Of a stretch of 64,000 nt of DNA, positions 3,593 to 33,804 are shown in pieces. Below the pieces are notes generated by a model, which worked only from the letters and a program-made list of their open reading frames with translations, did not search any database and was not told where the DNA came from. The DNA comes from Patescibacteria group bacterium (GTDB lineage Bacteria; Patescibacteriota; Doudnabacteria; UBA920), in contig DAIMCS010000003.1 in the NCBI GenBank assembly GCA_036726225.1, positions 73,769 through 137,768 of the forward strand, given 5' to 3'. Numbering within the stretch: position 1 is the stretch's first letter; each line of letters opens with the position of its first letter. The position numbers were made by a program, and so were the translations under genes.

Positions 3593-3609
3593 ATTTAGTC
3601 CATTTACAG

Positions 3610-4626
3610 TTAGTTTACCGAGTCAAAAAATTGCTTAGCTGCATTGAACATTTCGGGGTGGCCCTGTTTTTTTGCCCAATACCACCACTCTACACCCCAG
3701 AAATACTGCCTGTCCATACCTGACCTTTTAGCATAATTAATATTATCATAAAACACTTCGGGGTTCATAAGCCCAAATTGCTCAGCCCAAGGCACGCTGT
3801 GGACCGTACCATTAAACCAGGGTTCAGCCTGGAGCTCCACGCCAAGCGTCCTATTCATAGGACTTAAAACCTTTAGCATTCCGGCTTTGACCCTGTAAGT
3901 AAAGGCCGGAAGCGGATAGGTAATGTATTTGCCCTTTCTGTCGTGGTACACGGTTCGGTATAATGTTGAGCCTAAAAAGTTTCCTCCGGAGAAGGACACC
4001 GAAAGCCAGGCGCTTTTCTCCCCGCTGTCAGTAACAATAATTGGCCGGGTGTCCAGACTTTTTACAAGTTTAACTTCTTTTTCAAAAAGCTGCTGCGGGA
4101 TAGTCGGGCAGTTTGGCCCGTATTCAAAATAGGGTTCGTTTTCTACTTGCCACATTTCGACGGCCGGAAAATTTTTAAAATAATTTACGGATTTTTCAAG
4201 CATATTTAAAACTGCAGCTTCTTGCGCCGGTTCGGTCAACTTTTCGTACCAGGCTGGATGGTGGCATTCCGGCCATCTGGGCTGCTTATGGCCTAAAACT
4301 AAAATGACTTTAACGTTTCTTTTTGCCGCCTCATCCAGCATAAATTTTATGTCTGTACTGGGCAGGTCAAATTTTCCTCGGTTGGCTTCCAAATTCTCCC
4401 AGTATGCAGTTAGCCTTACGTATTTTGGCTTAAGTTCGTCTAAAATTTGGACAAATAATACTTTAGGCTGAAAACCTAAATACGAGGCAAAGTCAGAGGA
4501 AAAATTTACTCCCCAACCGGTATTTTTGCTCGGTCGATAAGCAAAATAAAAAATTGCGGACAATACTAATATTAAAATTATTAGTCCGGCTAAAATTTTA
4601 ATTAAAAAAATAAATATCCGCTTCAT
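3610..4626 (-). CDS. membrane-anchored glycoside hydrolase, clan GH-A (GH5-like)
   Basis: N-terminal TM anchor; WQVENEPYFEYG (catalytic-acid NEP motif). Confidence 0.6.
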   Translation of the reverse strand: MKRIFIFLIKILAGLIILILVLSAIFYFAYRPSKNTGWGVNFSSDFASYLGFQPKVLFVQILDELKPKYVRLTAYWENLEANRGKFDLPSTDIKFMLDEAAKRNVKVILVLGHKQPRWPECHHPAWYEKLTEPAQEAAVLNMLEKSVNYFKNFPAVEMWQVENEPYFEYGPNCPTIPQQLFEKEVKLVKSLDTRPIIVTDSGEKSAWLSVSFSGGNFLGSTLYRTVYHDRKGKYITYPLPAFTYRVKAGMLKVLSPMNRTLGVELQAEPWFNGTVHSVPWAEQFGLMNPEVFYDNINYAKRSGMDRQYFWGVEWWYWAKKQGHPEMFNAAKQFFDSVN

Positions 4627-19237: not shown

Positions 19238-19281
19238 AAGTTCAAAAACTCAGCCTTAAACTTAGGCTGAGTTTTTGAACT
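19238..19281. terminator. 16-bp perfect-stem hairpin between glgA and the GIY-YIG unit
   Basis: gttcaaaaactcagcc-ttaaactt-aggctgagtttttgaac; A/T runs lie inside the stem. Confidence 0.4.
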
Positions 19282-19535: not shown

Positions 19536-19820
19536 CTATCTCGTAATTTGGTAATACAGGTCGTCCCAATTGGGGTTTACCTCTTTAATCAATTTTATTT
19601 TCCAGGCTCTATTCCATTTCTTTAGCCGTTTCTCTCTTTGTAAAACACCTTCTTTGACATCTGATGACTCAAAATAAACTAGTTTGTTAATCCCATATTT
19701 TTTAGTAAAGCCATCGGCCAACTCATTTTTGTGTTCCCACACTCTTTTAATTAGGTTTGTGGTGAAGCCTATATATAATGTCCCGTTCTTTTTATTTGCC
19801 AAAATATAAACAAAATACAT
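19536..19820 (-). CDS. GIY-YIG nuclease family protein (UPF0213/YhbQ-like)
   Basis: YFVYIL...NGTLYIGFTTNLIKRVWEHK GIY-YIG core. Confidence 0.8.
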   Translation of the reverse strand: MYFVYILANKKNGTLYIGFTTNLIKRVWEHKNELADGFTKKYGINKLVYFESSDVKEGVLQREKRLKKWNRAWKIKLIKEVNPNWDDLYYQITR

Positions 19821-19828
19821 GTTTGTGG

Positions 19829-19848
19829 ATTCCCGCTTTCGCGGGAAT
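19829..19848. repeat. GC palindrome ATTCCCGCTTTCGCGGGAAT between the lexA stop and the GIY-YIG start
   Basis: Read directly. Confidence 0.6.
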
Positions 19849-19857
19849 GGGTAATGC

Positions 19858-20475
19858 TTACTCCAAATTTCTAATTACTCCCACCACTTTCCCTTGCACC
19901 ATCCACTCCTCCTTGGGGTAAATATCTTTGTAGTCCGGATTTTCGGCTTTTAGGTAGGCTCGGTTTTTTATTTGAATAAAGCGTTTTACCGTGGCTTCGT
20001 CGTGAAGCAGGGCTACTACAATGTCGTTATTGCGGACATCTTTAGTCGGCCTGACAATTACTAAGTCGCCTTCGTAAATTCCTGCGTTTATCATACTGTC
20101 TCCCCGAACTCTCAACAAAAATACGTCTCGCCTGCTTTTTATTAAAGTTTGAGGCAAATTAATCCATTCCTCCACGTGTTCTTCGGCTAAGTGTGGGCTG
20201 CCGGCCTGAATATTCCCCAAAACCGGCACACGCACCAGTCCTTTGTCTAAAGCTTCACCTAAAGCGTCTAAAACTGTTATGCCTCGGGCTTTGCCGCTGG
20301 TTTCTATAAAGCCTTCTTCTTCTAAAGCAGATAAAAGTTTGGCAACGGCATTTTTAGATTTTACTTTAAGGTAAGTTGCCATTTCAGATATAGAGGGAGG
20401 CAGGTTATGTTCGCGTATTTGCTTTACAATAAATTCCAGGAGTTGTTTTTGCCTGTCTGTAATTTCTTTTGACAT
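19858..20475 (-). CDS. lexA: LexA repressor (S24 peptidase)
   Basis: N-terminal wHTH; cleavage-site region VLGNIQAG; catalytic Ser in GDSM and Lys in VKRF. Confidence 0.9.
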   Translation of the reverse strand: MSKEITDRQKQLLEFIVKQIREHNLPPSISEMATYLKVKSKNAVAKLLSALEEEGFIETSGKARGITVLDALGEALDKGLVRVPVLGNIQAGSPHLAEEHVEEWINLPQTLIKSRRDVFLLRVRGDSMINAGIYEGDLVIVRPTKDVRNNDIVVALLHDEATVKRFIQIKNRAYLKAENPDYKDIYPKEEWMVQGKVVGVIRNLE

Positions 20476-20531
20476 ATAGATTTAAGATTAATGATTATAC
20501 AAATTAACGAATGAACAAATGAAACAAATAA

Positions 20532-20939
20532 CTACTGATGGATAATGGCAACGGCATCTCTCTTTACAACACGGATAGGTTTAATATATTGGTTCCTAAA
20601 GTTTACCAGCATCCCAAGTTTTAGCTGAGTTTCCTGCAGATAGCGCTGAAGTTGATCATAATCTTCTCTAGTCAGAATCCGCTTCGCTTTAAGCTCTAAA
20701 ATTATTTTGTTTTCTATAATAAAATCGACAATATTTCCACTATCCCCAATTCTACACTCCCTTTTATAGTTGATGTTTTTTTCTTTTAAAATCGATTCAA
20801 TTAAATCTGAATATTGTTTCTCTTTGCTGTAAGCACCTAGAGTATTGTGAGTCTGAAATAAAATACCATTAATATTATATGAAAGCTCAGGATAAAAGAA
20901 ACCGTATTCCCTAATTGAATTTGTATTTATCAGTTTCAT
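20532..20939 (-). CDS. GxxExxY / PDDEXK_3 family protein
   Basis: YPELSYNINGILFQTHNTLGAY...ILELKA pattern of the GxxExxY family. Confidence 0.75.
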   Translation of the reverse strand: MKLINTNSIREYGFFYPELSYNINGILFQTHNTLGAYSKEKQYSDLIESILKEKNINYKRECRIGDSGNIVDFIIENKIILELKAKRILTREDYDQLQRYLQETQLKLGMLVNFRNQYIKPIRVVKRDAVAIIHQ

Positions 20940-21311: not shown

Positions 21312-21456
21312 TTATTTAATTATACCACAGTGACAAAATAAGCCAAAATAAAAACCATCTTTTATACTTAAAAGATGGGGGTTTGTAGAAATTTGAATTT
21401 TGACCGGGAATTAAGCTTGCGTAAGCTTAATTCCCGGTTCGAATGCGAGGACATTA

Positions 21457-22734: not shown

Positions 22735-22855
22735 TAAAAATATTATAGCACAAGCTTTGGTTTTTAAGGAAAATGTTGTATAATAACAAGGATCAAAAGT
22801 TATTGGACTTAAGCCGGTTTTTAATGTGGGCTTAAGTTAAATTTAGCCATTGTTC

Positions 22856-24877
22856 ATGGAAGAAACAGAATCCCAAATAGCCAAAATAGTCTTAGGCAAC
22901 AACAAATCTTCTTCATCTTACGTTTATGTAATGGCGGAAAAAGCCGGGCAGACTGAAGATGAAATTTATATGGTGGCAGAGTTGCCCATCTTAAATCCTG
23001 CAGCCAAAGATGCCTGCGAAAGAATTTGTTTAGCCATTGCTTCTACACTTAAACGTGCCTACAAAACCCAGGCCAATGAAAATAATTTCGAAAATGCGCT
23101 CAGCTCGGTTAATGAAGAGCTTGGCAAACTGGCCGCATTGGGGCAAACAGAATGGGTAAATAAGCTAAACTGCATTTTGGCTACCAAAAGCGGCCAAAAT
23201 TTTCATATTGCCACTTGCGGTAAAACTGCGGCGTATCTTTTACGCAGCCGCGAATATACCGACATTACCTGTTCCCAGGACAAAAGCCATCCGCTAAAGA
23301 CTTTTGAAAATTTTGCCAGCGGCAAAATCCGTTTAAACGACGTTTTAATACTTTCTACAGTGCAGTTGTTTAATTATGTTTCCATGGACAGGCTGCTGAG
23401 TGTTGTAAACACTGCTGACTTTTTAACGGCCTCGCGCACAATAATTGAACTGCTTAAACAGACAGCCGAGACCACAGTTTCGTTCGGTATAATTTTAAAT
23501 TTACAAACTTTGCCGGGAGTTAATTTAGAGGAAGACATAGACTTGGAAAATTATAGCAGCAGAACGCCAAACCCGGTTTTTAGTTTGCCGGGTAAAATTT
23601 TGGGCTATTTAAAACAGGCTTTCGCACTGACTTCCAGGCGTAAAGCCCAAACTGCGCTGCCGAACATCCCCTTTTCGCAAAAATTAAAAGCTTTTGGCGG
23701 AAGTACCCTGGGCCACGGCAGGGCTGTTTGGAAAAAAGCAAAGAGCGGCGCGCAAAGCGCAAGGGCCGCGGTAGACCTGCAAAATTTCCGCCAAATGGCT
23801 CCGGCAAAAAGGCTCCTTTTGGTTTCCATAGCAATTTTGCTTATCGCATCAATTTTTAGCGTTTATGTGGCCGTTCACTTAAAAGGCAAAAGCTCGCGCA
23901 ACGAACAAATTACCAATGAGCTTAAAGAAACCCAAAGCCTTCTTTCCAACAGCCAGTCGTCGCTTTTATACCAGGATGACCAAAAGGCCGCAGATTTTTT
24001 CCGCCAGGCCCAAGCCAAACTTCCCCCCGAAGAAAGCATAAACGACGACAATAAAGATTTTTACAAACAGGTTTTAGAAGAGTTTAACAAAACCAAAAGC
24101 CAAATGGAAAAAGTAGTGGAAGTAGAAACCACTAATTTAGGCAGCTTAGGTCAGGCTGAAAATTTAATTAAACTCCCGGCGCATTTAGCCATTCAGGCCA
24201 ACCAGACGGTAATAAGTTATAACAGAGAGAGTGAGAAAATAGAAGACAGCGCCTTAAAAGGCCTTTCTGTAAATGCTTTAGCGACTGCTGCCGCATCGGA
24301 AAACTCTGTTGTGGTTTATGACGGTTCGGCTCTGCGCGTTTGGAATACAGGTTCAGGCGAGCTTGGGCAGAATTTTACGACAAATGTTCCCCAAAAAGAA
24401 GACTTTGCGGGTTTGGCCTGGTACTCATCTACCAGCCGTGTTTACACAGTGGACAAGAAAAACCAGTCTATAACCAGTTTTGTTGTTGCTTCGGGCTCGC
24501 TTTCCAAACCAACTGTAAGCGCAAAAAACCCGGTACTTAGCTCTTCGGTGGATTTAGCCATAGACGGCAATATTTATGTTTTAGGCAAAGATGGGGTAAG
24601 TAAATTTACCAAAGGTGTGCTTGCGGATTTTTCCATTGCGACTTTAGCTGTGCCATTTTCCGGCAGCGGCAAAATTTATACGCAAAAAGATTTTGTTAAC
24701 TTATATGTTCTTGACTCGGGCAACAACCGGGTGCTGGTGTTTGGGAAAAACGGCAGCCTAATTAGCACTTTAAAGTCTTCCAGCTTCACAGGCCTTAAAG
24801 ATTTGGAAGTTGATGAAAAAAAGAGAGTTATGTATTTGCTTAACGACGGAAGCTTGCTAAAGGTAAGTTTACCTTAA
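22856..24877 (+). CDS. large membrane protein: N-terminal cytoplasmic domain of unknown type, one central TM, C-terminal NHL/beta-propeller-like repeats
   Basis: TM LLLVSIAILLIASIFSVYVAV; LYVLDSGNNRVLVFGKNGSL NHL-like repeat. The track start at 22850 is TTG; ATG at 22856. Confidence 0.55.
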   Translation: MEETESQIAKIVLGNNKSSSSYVYVMAEKAGQTEDEIYMVAELPILNPAAKDACERICLAIASTLKRAYKTQANENNFENALSSVNEELGKLAALGQTEWVNKLNCILATKSGQNFHIATCGKTAAYLLRSREYTDITCSQDKSHPLKTFENFASGKIRLNDVLILSTVQLFNYVSMDRLLSVVNTADFLTASRTIIELLKQTAETTVSFGIILNLQTLPGVNLEEDIDLENYSSRTPNPVFSLPGKILGYLKQAFALTSRRKAQTALPNIPFSQKLKAFGGSTLGHGRAVWKKAKSGAQSARAAVDLQNFRQMAPAKRLLLVSIAILLIASIFSVYVAVHLKGKSSRNEQITNELKETQSLLSNSQSSLLYQDDQKAADFFRQAQAKLPPEESINDDNKDFYKQVLEEFNKTKSQMEKVVEVETTNLGSLGQAENLIKLPAHLAIQANQTVISYNRESEKIEDSALKGLSVNALATAAASENSVVVYDGSALRVWNTGSGELGQNFTTNVPQKEDFAGLAWYSSTSRVYTVDKKNQSITSFVVASGSLSKPTVSAKNPVLSSSVDLAIDGNIYVLGKDGVSKFTKGVLADFSIATLAVPFSGSGKIYTQKDFVNLYVLDSGNNRVLVFGKNGSLISTLKSSSFTGLKDLEVDEKKRVMYLLNDGSLLKVSLP

Positions 24878-24894
24878 ATTTTTTTATCCACCTT

Positions 24895-24928
24895 GTTAAT
24901 AAAAATGACGACCGTCTAAATTATTAAC
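24895..24928. promoter_or_regulatory. imperfect 34-bp palindrome overlapping the putative -35/-10 of the PaaX-like gene
   Basis: gttaataaaaatgacga/ccgtctaaattattaac; TTGTTA-18-TAAATT. Confidence 0.5.
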
Positions 24929-24937
24929 GATACGATT

Positions 24938-25471
24938 ATGTCAAAAAAAGATTTTACATTAACGAGCAAAATTCTATTACATATTGTGGCAGCGGGAAGT
25001 GTGGCCATGCCCTTTGTTAATCCTTACAAATTGCGCAATAAGGTTTTGTTCGGAAGAGATGTGGAGTATGAGCACTATCGTCAAATGGTTTATTATCTGG
25101 CGCGTAAAGGGTTTATTAAAATTGTAGATAAAAACGCCCAAAAATTTTTGAAACTTACCAAAGCAGGCAAGTTGGAGGCGTTAATCGCGAAAGCAAAAAT
25201 TCCCAACATTGGTAAGTGGGACGGCAAATGGCGGTTATTTATTTTTGATATTCCGGAGGAAGCGAGGGATGAACGCCAAAAACTTCGTTTTCTGCTAAAA
25301 TCAAACAATTTCCGTAAATTACAGGCAAGCGTCTTTATTAGCCCCTACCCTTTGAATCGGGATGCAATAAAATATTTAAAAACTACCGGACTGATTAGCT
25401 ATATAAGGATTATGAAAATTGAAGAAATGGATGATGATAGAGATTTAAAAAAACAATTTTCTTTAAAATGA
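24938..25471 (+). CDS. PaaX-family-like transcriptional regulator (wHTH + PaaX_C-like domain)
   Basis: WDGKWRLFIFDIPEEARDERQKLRFLLKSNNFRKLQASVFISP resembles the PaaX C-domain pattern; flanked by palindromes. Confidence 0.55.
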   Translation: MSKKDFTLTSKILLHIVAAGSVAMPFVNPYKLRNKVLFGRDVEYEHYRQMVYYLARKGFIKIVDKNAQKFLKLTKAGKLEALIAKAKIPNIGKWDGKWRLFIFDIPEEARDERQKLRFLLKSNNFRKLQASVFISPYPLNRDAIKYLKTTGLISYIRIMKIEEMDDDRDLKKQFSLK

Positions 25472-25480
25472 CGTGGTTGA

Positions 25481-25524
25481 AGTCTGTTAATAATTTAGAC
25501 GGCCGTCTAAATTATTAACAGACT
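25481..25524. promoter_or_regulatory. perfect 44-bp palindrome (22+22) sharing its core with the upstream site
   Basis: agtctgttaataatttagacgg/ccgtctaaattattaacagact. Confidence 0.6.
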
Positions 25525-25526
25525 GA

Positions 25527-26570
25527 TTATTGAATTGTTTTCAAAAATTTGTTTACTATATTTTCAACTTCTCCCACACCGATTGTTGTCATTAATTCAG
25601 CTCGTAATTCAGAAGCTCCGTCAAACCCGTTTGCGTAAGCTTTAAAATGCTTGCGTATTATTGCGAAAGATTTTTTCCCTTCAAATTCCTGTGTATACAA
25701 TCGCGCGTGTTCCAGCATAACAGACAGGCGTTCTTTTATAGTGGGCTCAAAATTATCTTTCCGAAAAAACCATGGGCTACCAAAAGCTCCCCTACCAACC
25801 ATAATTCCGTCACAGCCTGTTTCTTTAACTCTACTTAACCCTTCCTCGCGCGATTTGATATCACCGTTGCCGATGATCAGAGTCCTGCCATTGCGAGCCG
25901 AAGGCGAAGCAATCTTTTCCTTGTTTGAGATTGCTTCGTCGCTTACGCTTCTCGCAATGACATTTGATTGAATTTGGTTGCGAATTTTGACCGCCTGCGC
26001 AATTGCACCCCAATGAGCCGGAACTTTACTTTTTTCTTGCTTGGTTCTGGCGTGCAGAGCAATAGCTGCGGGCTCGGCCAATAACAGATGCCTAAGCCAG
26101 GCATTCATTTCCTCAATTTTGCTGTAGCCTAATCTTGTTTTGACCGAAACAGGCAAGCCGCCTGCGCCTTTTTTTGTTGCGGCTATAATTTCTTTTGCCC
26201 GCTCCGGTTCTAAAATTAAAGCCGCGCAGGTTTTTTGGCCAATCTCTTTGTCCTGCGGGCAGCCGAAATTAATGTCCACCCCGTCAAACCCGAGTTTCGC
26301 AATTATCTTAGCAGCATCGTGGAATTTTTGCGGCTCCCTGCCCCAGAGTTGCGCCACAATTGGCCGTTGAATTTCTGTAAATTTTAAATCTTGCGATAAC
26401 CTTTTGTAGCCCTCGGGATGAGTTAAGCCGTCAACATTTACAAATTCAGTATAAAAAACGTCCGGTTTACCGTACTTAGCAAACATTTCCCGAAACGCCA
26501 CGTCCGTAACATCCACCATAGGCGCAAGGCAAAAAATGGGCTTATTTAATTGTGTCCAAAAATTTGGCAT
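25527..26570 (-). CDS. dus: tRNA-dihydrouridine synthase
   Basis: CLAPMVDVTDVAFREM and FMN-binding TIM-barrel pattern. Confidence 0.85.
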   Translation of the reverse strand: MPNFWTQLNKPIFCLAPMVDVTDVAFREMFAKYGKPDVFYTEFVNVDGLTHPEGYKRLSQDLKFTEIQRPIVAQLWGREPQKFHDAAKIIAKLGFDGVDINFGCPQDKEIGQKTCAALILEPERAKEIIAATKKGAGGLPVSVKTRLGYSKIEEMNAWLRHLLLAEPAAIALHARTKQEKSKVPAHWGAIAQAVKIRNQIQSNVIARSVSDEAISNKEKIASPSARNGRTLIIGNGDIKSREEGLSRVKETGCDGIMVGRGAFGSPWFFRKDNFEPTIKERLSVMLEHARLYTQEFEGKKSFAIIRKHFKAYANGFDGASELRAELMTTIGVGEVENIVNKFLKTIQ

Positions 26571-26620: not shown

Positions 26621-26674
26621 AAAAAGATCCCTCGCTTCGCTCCCTCAGGATGACTTTGAAATAATAAAACTATA

Positions 26675-27079
26675 TTATTTCAAAGTCACTTTAGCGCCGG
26701 CTTCTTCCATTTTCTTCTTTAAGGCTTCGGCATCGGCTTTAGCAACGTTTTCTTTAACGGTCTTAGGAGCTGCGTCTACAATGTCCTTGGCTTCTTTAAG
26801 TCCAAGGCCGGTAACTTCGCGCACAACTTTAATTACGTTAATTTTGTTCGGTCCGGCTTCGGTTAATTCAACCGTAAATTCGGTTTTTTCCTCGGCGGCA
26901 GGAGCTCCAGCACCGGCTCCGCCAGCGGCCATCATCATGGGAGCAGCGGCGCTTACACCAAACTTCTCTTCTAAAATTTTTACAAGTTCAGACAACTCAA
27001 TGGCTGTTAACTTTTCTACGTGGTCCACAACAGTTTTAAACTTTGCGGGGACTTCAACATTCTTTACTTCATCTGACAT
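26675..27079 (-). CDS. rplL: 50S ribosomal protein L7/L12
   Basis: Ala/Gly-rich hinge and conserved C-terminal domain ([36 protein letters not shown]). Confidence 0.9.
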
Positions 27080-28927: not shown

Positions 28928-29692
28928 CTAGGTTAAAACTCTTCCCCCATTTTTTCCAACTGTTACCGTGTGTTCAAAATGTGAAGAAAGCCCGCCGTCG
29001 GCCGTCCTAATTGTCCAGCCGTCAGCATCTACATTTACAAAATATTCGTGCTCGCAAACCATAGGCTCAATGGCTAAAACCATACCTTCTTTTAAAACCA
29101 ACCCGGTGCCTTTTTTACCGTAGCAGGGAACAGCCGGGTCCTCGTGGACTTCGTAGCCCACCCCGTGCCCGACTAAGTCGCGCACCACGGAAAAACCGGC
29201 CGCTTTAGCAGTTGATTCAATAGCAAAACTTATATCACCAATCCTGTTTCCGGCTTTTGCCTGGGCAATCGCCGCGTCCAGGCATTTTTTTGCGGTTTGG
29301 ATGAGTTTTAAACCTACATCTGACACCCGTCCCACAGCCACTGTAAGCGCGTGGTCAGTATACAGGCCTTTGTATTCCATTCCAATGTCTAGCCCTAAAA
29401 TGTCTCCGGATTTTAAAATAGCCGTTTGCGAAGGAATACCATGCACCACAACATCGTTCAGCGAAGTGCATAAACCTGCGGGAAAAGGATTTTTTTTGTC
29501 TCCGTACCCGTTAAAGCTTGGCCTGCCGCCTGAAGAAACAATTTCTTTTTCCGCAAAAGCATTTAACTCAAAGGTAGAAACGCCGGGTTTTACAAGCCCG
29601 GCAGTCTTTTGCAAAATATCGTGAAGAATTTTCCCTCCCTCGGCAATTATTTCAATTTCTTCTTGAGTTTTAATTAACCCTTTTTTGCTCAT
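28928..29692 (-). CDS. map: methionine aminopeptidase type I
   Basis: Metal-ligand pattern: D..D (DILGLDIG), HGVGYEVHEDP, E..E, C-terminal HFEHTV. Confidence 0.9.
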   Translation of the reverse strand: MSKKGLIKTQEEIEIIAEGGKILHDILQKTAGLVKPGVSTFELNAFAEKEIVSSGGRPSFNGYGDKKNPFPAGLCTSLNDVVVHGIPSQTAILKSGDILGLDIGMEYKGLYTDHALTVAVGRVSDVGLKLIQTAKKCLDAAIAQAKAGNRIGDISFAIESTAKAAGFSVVRDLVGHGVGYEVHEDPAVPCYGKKGTGLVLKEGMVLAIEPMVCEHEYFVNVDADGWTIRTADGGLSSHFEHTVTVGKNGGRVLT

Positions 29693-30287
29693 ATTTAGTT
29701 ATCGAAGCTAAAAGTCTTTTTTTGGCGCCGGGAATTGTGCCTGAAGTAGAAATTTTAACAAACGGATAAAGTTTTTTAAAATAAGAAACAACCTGCTTTA
29801 TATTTTTTTGGTAATAGGCTACTCTGTTTTTTAAAGCGTTGTTGTTGTCGTCCGGGCGTTTGGAAAACTTTCCGCGAAAATAAGTTTTGCGGCTGGTCAT
29901 TCTACGCATTGTTTCTTTTAACGGAATTGTTAAATAAACAAAAAGCACCTGTTGGCGCTTTTCCTGGCGGAGCCATTTTACAACCAGCTTGGCCTCTCCG
30001 AGCATTTTGGGACTACCGTTAAAAAGTATGCCCTGCTTTTTGGGTGTGGAGTGTATTTTGTAGCGCAAGATTTTTCTTACCAGTTCAGTGGGTGTAAGCT
30101 TGCCGCGGTCAAGGGTTTGGTCCAATTTATACTTTGCCCTAAGTTTTTGGTTACCCTCCAGGGCCCTTAGTTCTTTGCCCATATCCAAATTGTACAAATG
30201 GTACTTAGACGCTAAAAACCTCCCGTGAGTGGCTTTCCCGGCAGCAGGGTCGCCTAAAAGTATTATGTTAAAAGGTTGGCCTTTCAT
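29670..30287 (-). CDS. divergent adenylate-kinase-like NMP kinase (tandem paralog of adk)
   Basis: P-loop LLGDPAAGKAT; NMP-binding and LID-less layout colinear with the adjacent adk. Confidence 0.55.
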   Translation of the reverse strand: MKGQPFNIILLGDPAAGKATHGRFLASKYHLYNLDMGKELRALEGNQKLRAKYKLDQTLDRGKLTPTELVRKILRYKIHSTPKKQGILFNGSPKMLGEAKLVVKWLRQEKRQQVLFVYLTIPLKETMRRMTSRKTYFRGKFSKRPDDNNNALKNRVAYYQKNIKQVVSYFKKLYPFVKISTSGTIPGAKKRLLASITKYEQKRVN

Positions 30288-30289
30288 AA

Positions 30290-30892
30290 TTAAAGTTTTT
30301 TGATGAGAGGCGATGACTGGTCAACCCCGAGTGTTTGTTCAATTTTTTTTGTAACCTCATGGATTTGCGGGGAGCCGTCTATTTCAAAAAATTGCGTGTG
30401 CTGTTTTAAAAAATCCAGCACAGGCAGGGTTTCTTCTTCGTATTGCTGCAAACGAAATTCAATTTTTTCCAAAGTGTCGTCGGCCCGCTTTTCCAGCTGT
30501 CCCCTTTTAAGCAAGCGCTGGACAGATTCAGCTTTAGGCAAGCTAATGTACAGGGTTGTAAAATTTTCCCGTCCCTGTTCCTTTAAAAAGTTGAGCAAAG
30601 CTTCGGCCTGGCCAATTCTTCTGGGAATGCCGTCAAAAATTACGCCCTGGGTCTTTGAAATTTCGCCCAGTCTCATTTTTACCACCTGATATAAGTCTTC
30701 ATCCTGCAAAAGCACCCCTGAATCTATTAAATTCTTTATTCGAATGCCCAAAATTGAATCCCCCGCCGCAACTTCTCGTAAAATCCCGCCCATTTCCCAA
30801 TAAAAAAAGTCCAGCTTTTTTGCTAAAAGCTTAGCCTGGGTCCCCTTGCCGCTTCCTTGGGGGCCAATAAAAAAAATGACGTTCAATTGCAT
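30290..30892 (-). CDS. adk: adenylate kinase
   Basis: GPQGSGKGTQA P-loop; short-LID form. Confidence 0.9.
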   Translation of the reverse strand: MQLNVIFFIGPQGSGKGTQAKLLAKKLDFFYWEMGGILREVAAGDSILGIRIKNLIDSGVLLQDEDLYQVVKMRLGEISKTQGVIFDGIPRRIGQAEALLNFLKEQGRENFTTLYISLPKAESVQRLLKRGQLEKRADDTLEKIEFRLQQYEEETLPVLDFLKQHTQFFEIDGSPQIHEVTKKIEQTLGVDQSSPLIKKL

Positions 30893-33559: not shown

Positions 33560-33567
33560 AAAAAGAA

Positions 33568-33597
33568 AAGCCCGGGCGGTTACCCGGGCTTTTTTGC
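33568..33597 (+). terminator. rho-independent terminator
   Basis: AGCCCGGGcggttaCCCGGGCT + TTTTTT. Confidence 0.75.
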
Positions 33598-33804
33598 CGC
33601 TTTACGATTAGGAGTCCTCATAGGTTGGCTCGTCCAACCAGACCCAAAAGCTGGTAGTAAGCGTACAAGCCCCAACCTTAAAGACTAGCAAGCAAAAATA
33701 CAAACCCGCAGTGGTCGAGGGAAACAGTACTAGCCTGCTCATGAGCCAAAACCCTCCTTACAAAAGAATTATACCAAAAACAAGCGGTTTGCTATAATAT
33801 CTCC

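Follow-up and report, generated by a model that had tools for sequence, protein, structure and literature searches.

Palindrome-bracketed genes for a small PaaX-like protein in Patescibacteria look like self-regulating cassettes

The 64,000-nucleotide (nt) stretch analysed here, called the window, comes from a Patescibacteria group bacterium of the Doudnabacteria (GenBank assembly GCA_036726225.1, contig DAIMCS010000003.1, positions 73,769 to 137,768). It contains a gene for a two-domain protein of 177 amino acids (aa) (24938–25471, plus strand, stop codon included) that lies between two long palindromes. The downstream one, AGTCTGTTAATAATTTAGACGG followed without spacer by CCGTCTAAATTATTAACAGACT (25481–25524), is a perfect 22+22 palindrome centred on CGGCCG (25500–25505). 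It begins 9 nt past the stop codon of the gene and ends 2 nt short of the stop codon of the convergent dus gene (tRNA-dihydrouridine synthase, 25527–26570, minus strand, Pfam Dus E 1.4e-58). The upstream one, GTTAATAAAAATGACGA followed by CCGTCTAAATTATTAAC (24895–24928 as a palindrome, 24894–24928 as a degenerate copy of the downstream site), is imperfect, with 12 of 17 arm positions complementary on direct reading and CGACCG (24909–24914) as centre. It ends 9 nt 5' of the ATG, and its right arm is exactly that of the downstream site. Further upstream lies a gene of 675 aa without clear Pfam family (22850–24877, plus strand). This gene and dus lie outside the module and define the slot in which it sits. 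The whole block between them (24878–25526) opens with a 16-nt leader, continues through upstream site, gene and downstream palindrome, and closes with 2 more nt. A first-pass annotation, made from the letters of the window alone, had described a gene bracketed in this way, and both its coordinates and its arms were confirmed.

The 17-mer arm, for which the first pass proposed a search of the genome, is confined within the window to these two sites (three arm matches). Upstream and downstream sites align over 46 nt with 78% identity, and their centres are 591 bp apart. A perfect 22+22 palindrome is expected by chance about 4e-9 times per 64 kb, by simple arithmetic, and this one is the longest hairpin of the window. 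Folded as single-stranded DNA, the downstream site reaches −18 kcal/mol (z = −10.4) and the upstream site −4.3 kcal/mol. We give next to no credence to chance similarity or to an assembly artefact. Fold-back chimeras can create palindromes, and some contigs carrying members of the family end inside one. However, JGI, ENA and Logan assemblies of this organism, made independently, all contain the sequence, inside contigs of 131–138 kb, and the palindrome is therefore not an assembly artefact; moreover, none of 100 shuffles reproduced the three arm matches, and the same layout is found at dozens of homologues. A strain variant of the window organism (locus L004, 10544–10587) has CGGCAG in place of the CGGCCG centre, by a C-to-A change, in an otherwise identical palindrome.

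The protein was assigned from Pfam, an AlphaFold2 model and Foldseek. Residues 93–164 (25214–25429, plus strand) match PaaX_M (PF20803, “PaaX protein central Cas2-like domain”) with an E value of 9.9e-20. The motif WDGKWR...SVFISP, taken in the first pass for a PaaX_C-like signature, belongs to this central domain; for PaaX_C itself there was no Pfam match at E<=1, and the protein ends at residue 177. The model (pLDDT 82.7, from an input of 30 homologues) begins with a winged-helix domain for DNA binding (residues ~1–90, 24938–25207, plus strand), with a helix at 44–56 and a beta-hairpin at 60–73, followed by a second domain of beta-alpha-beta-beta-alpha-beta topology. In a Foldseek search of the PDB, E. 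coli PaaX (8a39) came first, followed by Rv0674 (3kfw) and 3l09, each aligned through both domains over about 175 columns. As single domains, the winged helix matched F-93 and AspA, and the second domain matched Cas2 (5zyf, target-normalised TM ~0.6). The family check proposed in the first pass thus led to PaaX relatives and not to an unrelated family. The protein is a two-domain “mini-PaaX”, a winged helix joined to a Cas2-like domain, without the effector-binding domain.

PaaX of E. coli W (8a39; TIGR02277) likewise has a winged helix followed by a Cas2-like middle domain, which serves in dimerisation. It is however a phenylacetyl-CoA-responsive repressor of the paa genes, of ~305–316 aa, with a C-terminal helical effector domain that the 177-aa protein does not have; the PDB relatives as a group have 234–316 aa. 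The PaaX equivalog model TIGR02277 scored 35 bits, far from its cut-off of 264.55, and no paa gene was found within 10 kb, where the neighbours are dus, rplL, rplJ, map, adk, lexA and others. The Cas2 model TIGR01573 scored 24.7 bits for a cut-off of 24.5, and matched over model positions 3–40 of 96 only. No Cas1 family member was found among the called genes within 10 kb on each side (a CRISPR array was not searched for), and no cas gene recurs as a neighbour at homologous loci. Given the missing PaaX_C domain, the failed equivalog, the absence of paa genes, the marginal partial Cas2 match and the absence of cas1, the protein is therefore neither PaaX nor a CRISPR Cas2. Membership of a defence system was also considered and rejected, as PADLOC returned Cas2 models and nothing beyond them.

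The relation to Cas2 and VapD is nevertheless visible in the ferredoxin-like fold, in the FD(I/M)P motif of strand beta1 with its metal-binding Asp, and in the Q-x-SV(F/Y) strand. Cas2 is, in addition, a homodimer that works beside partly palindromic repeats. The family differs from both in that its domain is fused to a winged helix, and it is closer to PaaX_M than to CRISPR_Cas2. A profile search against PDB sequences aligned R-L-v-i-F-D-I-P-E...L-Q-A-S-V-F of the family with F-D-M-P-T-D...Q-F-S-V-Y of type II-A Cas2. In this alignment D104 (codon GAT, 25247–25249) of FDIPE falls on the beta1 Asp of FDMPTD, which in Cas2 is a metal ligand. E. coli PaaX has L-L-L-S-E there, that is, a Ser in place of the Asp. 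The remark made in the first pass that a nuclease should be kept in mind is thus borne out to this extent. D104 is one of ten residues that are invariant across homologues (W94, D95, W98, R99, D104, P106, R113, Q129, S131 and V132). The N-terminal half is much more variable than the C-terminal half (mean pairwise difference 0.70 versus 0.43), its winged-helix domain being poorly conserved between paralogues. A difference of this kind from the Cas2-like domain is expected if the N-terminal domain sets a private specificity.

Searches for relatives gave 111 clusters at 90% identity (E<=1e-5), 3820 representatives at 50% identity (E<=1e-10), nearly all of 170–240 aa, and more than 581 matches in species-representative genomes. 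The latter carry, almost without exception, a Patescibacteria label, most often Candidatus Doudnabacteria. In viral contigs there was none, and a phage origin was rejected on this ground. For comparison, 80 homologous loci from Patescibacteria genomes, mostly Doudnabacteria, were kept (471 kb in total; individual loci and contigs are cited below by L numbers) and their flanks were searched for palindromes. Genomes among these loci carry three to five paralogues, and the window a single copy. The highest identity between any two proteins of the family was 76%.

A loop-less palindrome centred on CGGCCG was found within 300 nt of the gene at 61 of the 80 loci, upstream in 48, downstream in 47 and on both sides in 34. 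The 19 loci with neither are mostly distant, Paceibacteria-type homologues, together with a few whose palindromes have other centres. The palindromes are typically long, perfect and without loop, and stand directly before the start and/or after the stop of the gene, with a CGGCCG centre that usually reads ACGGCCGT. The 471 kb contain 131 loop-less palindromes whose arms measure 10 nt or more; 80 had this centre and 9 a one-base variant of it, whereas only about 5 solitary sites of the CGGCCG type lay more than 250 nt from a family gene. The layout of the window was also present at two closer homologues on independent metagenome contigs. The median gap was 26.5 nt from the upstream site to the start codon and 4 nt from the stop codon to the downstream site, which often overlaps the last codons of the gene. 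As in the window, upstream sites are usually shorter or imperfect, and the perfect long copies stand at the boundary of the module. Upstream copies are imperfect presumably because they must double as promoters.

The orientation of the next gene makes no difference to the frequency of the downstream site (11/17 if convergent, 31/46 if co-directional). It therefore belongs to the family gene, and the possibility that it is an operator of the next gene was discarded. Avoidance of CGGCCG by restriction was discarded as well, since the hexamer is over-represented (23 observed, 5 expected). Four contigs (L006, L010, L052 and L074) end inside the downstream palindrome or right after it; such palindromes probably break short-read assemblies, and so fragment the genome bins of this group. 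Some loci have extra palindromes made of the gene's own arms 0.5–3 kb away, bracketing genes or gene-free stretches (L011, 114–157; L026, 6328–6365; L100, 2888–2925), and L024 has three cognate copies (2764–2803, 3608–3647 and 4015–4054). In some loci the extra copy is the third, stands 1–3 kb away and encloses further genes.

To characterise the arms, 104 sites from 80 loci were examined position by position from the centre outwards; positions 1–8 are partly forced by the detection rule, and positions 9–18 are not. The two arms were Watson-Crick complementary in 84–100% of sites at each of positions 1–18 (25–50% in shuffled controls), and complementarity fell to background by positions 19–21. 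A typical site therefore spans 36–38 bp. All four bases are used at positions 5–18. Arm identity was 0.76 between the two sites of one gene, 0.37 between loci, and 0.60 between orthologues (more than 65% protein identity). Within a locus, identity is bipartite: it is high at positions 1–8 and 12–16, lower at 9–11, and at background from 19. The outer block (12–16) is locus-specific, and the two blocks are about one helical turn apart. Two blocks so spaced in each half-site form the pattern expected of a dimer that would contact one face of the DNA.

Differences between the two sites of a gene very often affect both arms, as mirror images of each other. At positions 5–18, 70 differences were mirrored for 8.9 expected, with a maximum of 22 in 500 permutations. 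For positions 9–11, in the 34 loci with both sites, 31 of 40 differences were mirrored, mostly A-to-T or T-to-A swaps. These swaps flip the polarity of the A/T tracts around the centre, from TTTT..AAAA to AAAA..TTTT or the reverse.

A role of the palindromes as RNA hairpins was considered. The downstream site would then be a bidirectional terminator or 3' stabiliser for the regulator and dus, the upstream site would give a 5' hairpin, and their similarity would be incidental or the trace of a duplication. We consider this very unlikely. The downstream site does stand between two convergent stop codons and folds very stably, and other long hairpins occur at gene ends in the window. Yet no T-run follows it, its stem is A+T-rich and loop-less, and the terminator scan did not call it; across the family, a T-run (at least 5 T in the next 8 nt) follows only 4 of 47 downstream sites. 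The polarity is also wrong for a terminator, as T prevails in the inner arm on the 5' side and A in that on the 3' side. Mismatches between arms showed no wobble bias, with 31 G:T and 31 A:C; without an excess of the former there is thus no sign of selection for an RNA hairpin on either strand. Furthermore, termination needs neither an invariant CGGCCG centre nor arms common to both sites. An intrinsic terminator, one of the roles raised in the first pass, was accordingly rejected on the scan of the window and the family-wide T-run test. A known RNA was rejected too: no Rfam family was found, the one match being a spurious miRNA hairpin far below its gathering score.

The comparison with PaaX points to another role. 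The operator of E. coli PaaX is a 39-bp inverted repeat, TGATTC-N27-GAATCA, and the protein keeps its own promoter repressed by standing in the way of RNA polymerase (review PMC9493321). The half-sites there are 14–19 bp from the centre; in the family, the locus-specific block is at 12–16 and symmetry ends at 18–19. In extent, the palindromes thus agree with what a PaaX-type dimer can reach. The likeness would extend to the promoter, the palindromes measuring 36–44 bp here and the upstream one overlapping a promoter-like region. The operators differ in build: 6-bp half-sites around a free N27 in PaaX, and in the family a site that is palindromic throughout with a conserved CGGCCG centre. They differ also in that family sites flank only the regulator's own gene, and in that the family is multi-copy, each paralogue having arms of its own.

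Upstream sites overlap the best sigma-70-like match in about 21 of 45 homologous loci, with the CGGCCG centre in the spacer or at the −35 hexamer. Two geometries were distinguished. In the first, the centre lies in the spacer, 14.5–16.5 nt after the start of the −35, as with TTGACA-N17-TATACT in L100 and TTGACA-N17-TATAAT in L070. In the second, a −35 of TTGACG (e.g. in L055) or TTCACG ends at the centre, and the −10 stands just past the right arm, 5–6 nt from the ATG. Transcripts from promoters of this second kind would be leaderless. At L098, a close homologue stands two genes past ftsA and immediately 5' of ftsZ, with sites at 3940–4000 and 4545–4600. The upstream operator and the −10-like TTATTATTACCAA recur, in direct orientation, at its downstream site, which might drive or control ftsZ.

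The anatomy of the locus, the family-wide association of gene and palindromes, the symmetry and covariation of the arms, their bipartite conservation, the fold of the protein and the presence or absence of the block at conserved slots (below) are observed features. As to what they mean, we favour, with moderate confidence and from sequence comparison, a PaaX-like dimer that regulates its own gene through two private operators and is carried in an insertable cassette. Binding of the regulator to both sites was one of the options raised in the first pass. It is the reading best supported, on comparative evidence: a recurring pair of sites with locus-specific arms, bipartite conservation, a PaaX-like span and overlap with promoter-like sequences all suggest it. 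Most likely, the 177-aa protein would form a symmetric dimer on an operator of its own, about 36–44 bp long. The imperfect copy, presumably an operator embedded in the gene's own promoter, would mediate autorepression by occluding RNA polymerase. The perfect copy after the stop codon, presumably of high affinity, would be an auxiliary operator, and would either loop out the ~590-bp gene or act as a transcription roadblock at the 3' boundary of the module. Gene and two sites would together form a self-contained single-gene cassette of a large multi-copy Patescibacteria family, in which every paralogue would have its own arm sequence around the common CGGCCG centre.

Repressors that loop DNA through auxiliary operators are well known, as with LacI (O1/O2), DeoR and GalR. 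The arrangement here may be analogous, with a weaker operator at the promoter and a stronger one hundreds of bp away (591 bp in the window). It is unlike them in that the auxiliary operator is past the 3' end of the regulator's own gene, and in that no structural operon is visibly controlled.

Several observations weigh against the operator reading. The first concerns the promoter. The TTGTTA-18-TAAATT candidate put forward in the first pass (24893–24898 and 24917–24922, plus strand) is present, overlaps the upstream site and conforms to the first geometry, but it is a weak sigma-70-like match, with 8 of 12 consensus positions, and is below the threshold of the promoter scan. TTAATA-17-AATTAT (24896–24924) is an alternative candidate, and both are inside the upstream site. 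Second, covariation of arm sequence with the N- versus the C-terminal domain gave no clear signal, with a partial Mantel coefficient of 0.01, a value equalled or exceeded in 181 of 500 permutations. There were weak hints in the expected direction (0.18 for the inner arm with the C-domain, 0.13 for the outer arm with the N-domain). Third, the visible sites flank only the regulator's own gene and no target is obvious, a situation as compatible with a selfish module as with a regulator. Fourth, the retention of the Cas2 catalytic Asp as the invariant D104 hints at an enzymatic role. Finally, some arms reach 29 nt, a length that the operator reading leaves unexplained, and symmetry is kept more strictly than sequence, notably across positions 9–11, so that protein recognition alone is insufficient. 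On top of recognition, a symmetry-restoring process may contribute to keeping the arms perfect. Such a process could be the correction of quasi-palindromes by hairpin formation or template switching, or it could reflect a functional need for hairpin or cruciform extrusion. Template-switch correction of quasi-palindromes is an established mutational process.

The block as a whole is either present or absent in its slot. Seven metagenome loci have a homologue of the 675-aa gene. Six of them have the convergent dus as neighbour and no family gene in between, in answer to the first-pass suggestion to compare relatives for the block; the contig of the seventh ends at the 675-aa gene. In L094, L095 and L097, the stop codons of the 675-aa-gene homologue and dus are 0–30 nt apart. 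Other insertions were seen in the same slot: a DUF559 endonuclease-like gene (E 2e-35) flanked by GC-rich inverted repeats (L096, 870–1225), a ~260-bp element with 18-nt terminal inverted repeats (L091, 6042–6301), and a long imperfect hairpin repeat (L092, 2315–2410). Conversely, the slot between a Na+/H+ exchanger gene and cysS holds a paralogue in 8 other genomes, and in the window only an ordinary terminator with GC stem and T-run (33560–33804); a remnant palindrome was considered at this empty slot and rejected. Other paralogues occupy other conserved slots, for example between ftsA and ftsZ. Filled and empty conserved slots indicate, therefore, that the palindrome-gene-palindrome unit is gained or lost as a block.

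These data bear on a different explanation, compatible with the operator reading, in which the unit is a selfish or mobile cassette. An active Cas2-like nuclease would nick or cut its own flanking palindromes, perhaps when these are extruded as hairpins or as a cruciform with GGCC as the loop; cleavage would promote movement, gene conversion or retention, and autoregulation would be secondary. We hold this to be possible, though rather unlikely. The first-pass proposal that the palindromes mark the ends of a mobile cassette stands in so far as the block is absent from the six related loci, where other selfish-looking insertions occupy such slots, and as the exchanger/cysS slot is filled in the 8 genomes and empty here. 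The number of paralogues per genome, the alignment of Asp104 with the metal-binding Asp of Cas2, to which R113 and R117 may be added, the excess of mirrored differences over what sequence conservation needs, and the extra cognate palindromes that bracket further genes in L011, L026 and L100 or occur in three copies in L024, all point the same way. Other observations weigh against active mobility. No pair of copies exceeds the 76% identity given above, orthologues keep their syntenic positions across species, and there was no target-site duplication, as direct repeats outside the palindromes were not in excess (555 direct and 579 inverted matches of 1738). A GATTAT that follows both copies in the window was rejected as a duplicated target because it is not a general pattern. 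Neither transposase nor integrase genes were found nearby, the protein had no Pfam match to Y1_Tnp (HUH/Y1), LAGLIDADG, GIY-YIG, HNH or PD-(D/E)xK, and the viral contigs yielded no relative. To our knowledge, Cas2 does not catalyse transposition.

As in REP/RAYT and IS200/IS605 elements, cognate palindromes stand on either side of a single gene, with stems that covary around a short conserved core; unlike these, the family has no HUH/Y1 domain, its palindromes are perfect and loop-less, and no dispersed copies of them occur in the 64 kb. It differs from transposons, miniature inverted-repeat transposable elements and insertion sequences by the lack of target-site duplication, of near-identical copies and of a transposase domain. 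A free-standing homing endonuclease gene would show presence and absence at conserved intergenic slots such as the two described here, but no known homing nuclease domain was found, and the palindrome is duplicated and not split by the insertion. A more specific version, in which the module is a hitherto unrecognised kind of selfish element built around a free-living relative of Cas2 and its winged-helix nuclease binds and nicks extruded GGCC-loop hairpins bracketing its own gene, appears to us unlikely. A hairpin stage of the palindromes would account for arms that drift in sequence and yet keep their perfect symmetry.

Other features of the window were recorded in passing. Three more long perfect hairpins, with arms of 16–18 nt and loops of 4–7 nt, lie at 19239–19281, 21403–21438 and 26651–26688; the last overlaps the stop codon of rplL and, upstream of dus, carries promoter-like hexamers on both strands. 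Two adenylate-kinase paralogues are in tandem at ~29670–30892, and some 4 kb before the module, at ~19536–20939, lexA clusters with a GIY-YIG and a PDDEXK_3 gene (both converted from the coordinates of L001).

A full-text literature search, in which subscription journals were thinly covered, found no account of the family or of bacterial palindromes centred on ACGGCCGT. Judged by sequence, the family-wide palindrome-gene-palindrome architecture looks like an undescribed self-regulating gene cassette. Its modules can be located by a simple rule, a loop-less palindrome with a CGGCCG centre and arms of about 18 nt, and the palindromes probably account for some of the contig breaks in metagenome-assembled genomes. 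The sites provide, in addition, a data set in which symmetry persists whatever the sequence. Should the retained Cas2 active site be functional, the family would offer the first case of a Cas2-type nuclease linked to palindromic repeats other than those of CRISPR, and if the selfish, hairpin-nicking reading is true, such a link between Cas2 and palindromes may bear on the origin of the CRISPR adaptation module. For the organisms themselves, it is of interest that Patescibacteria genomes are tiny and yet carry, among the loci kept, up to 5 paralogues each of a family of about 3800 clusters at 50% identity without described function. With an operator of its own, about 38 bp long, at either end of each paralogue's gene, a testable model would follow, in which the paralogues of a genome form a set of orthogonal repressor/operator pairs.

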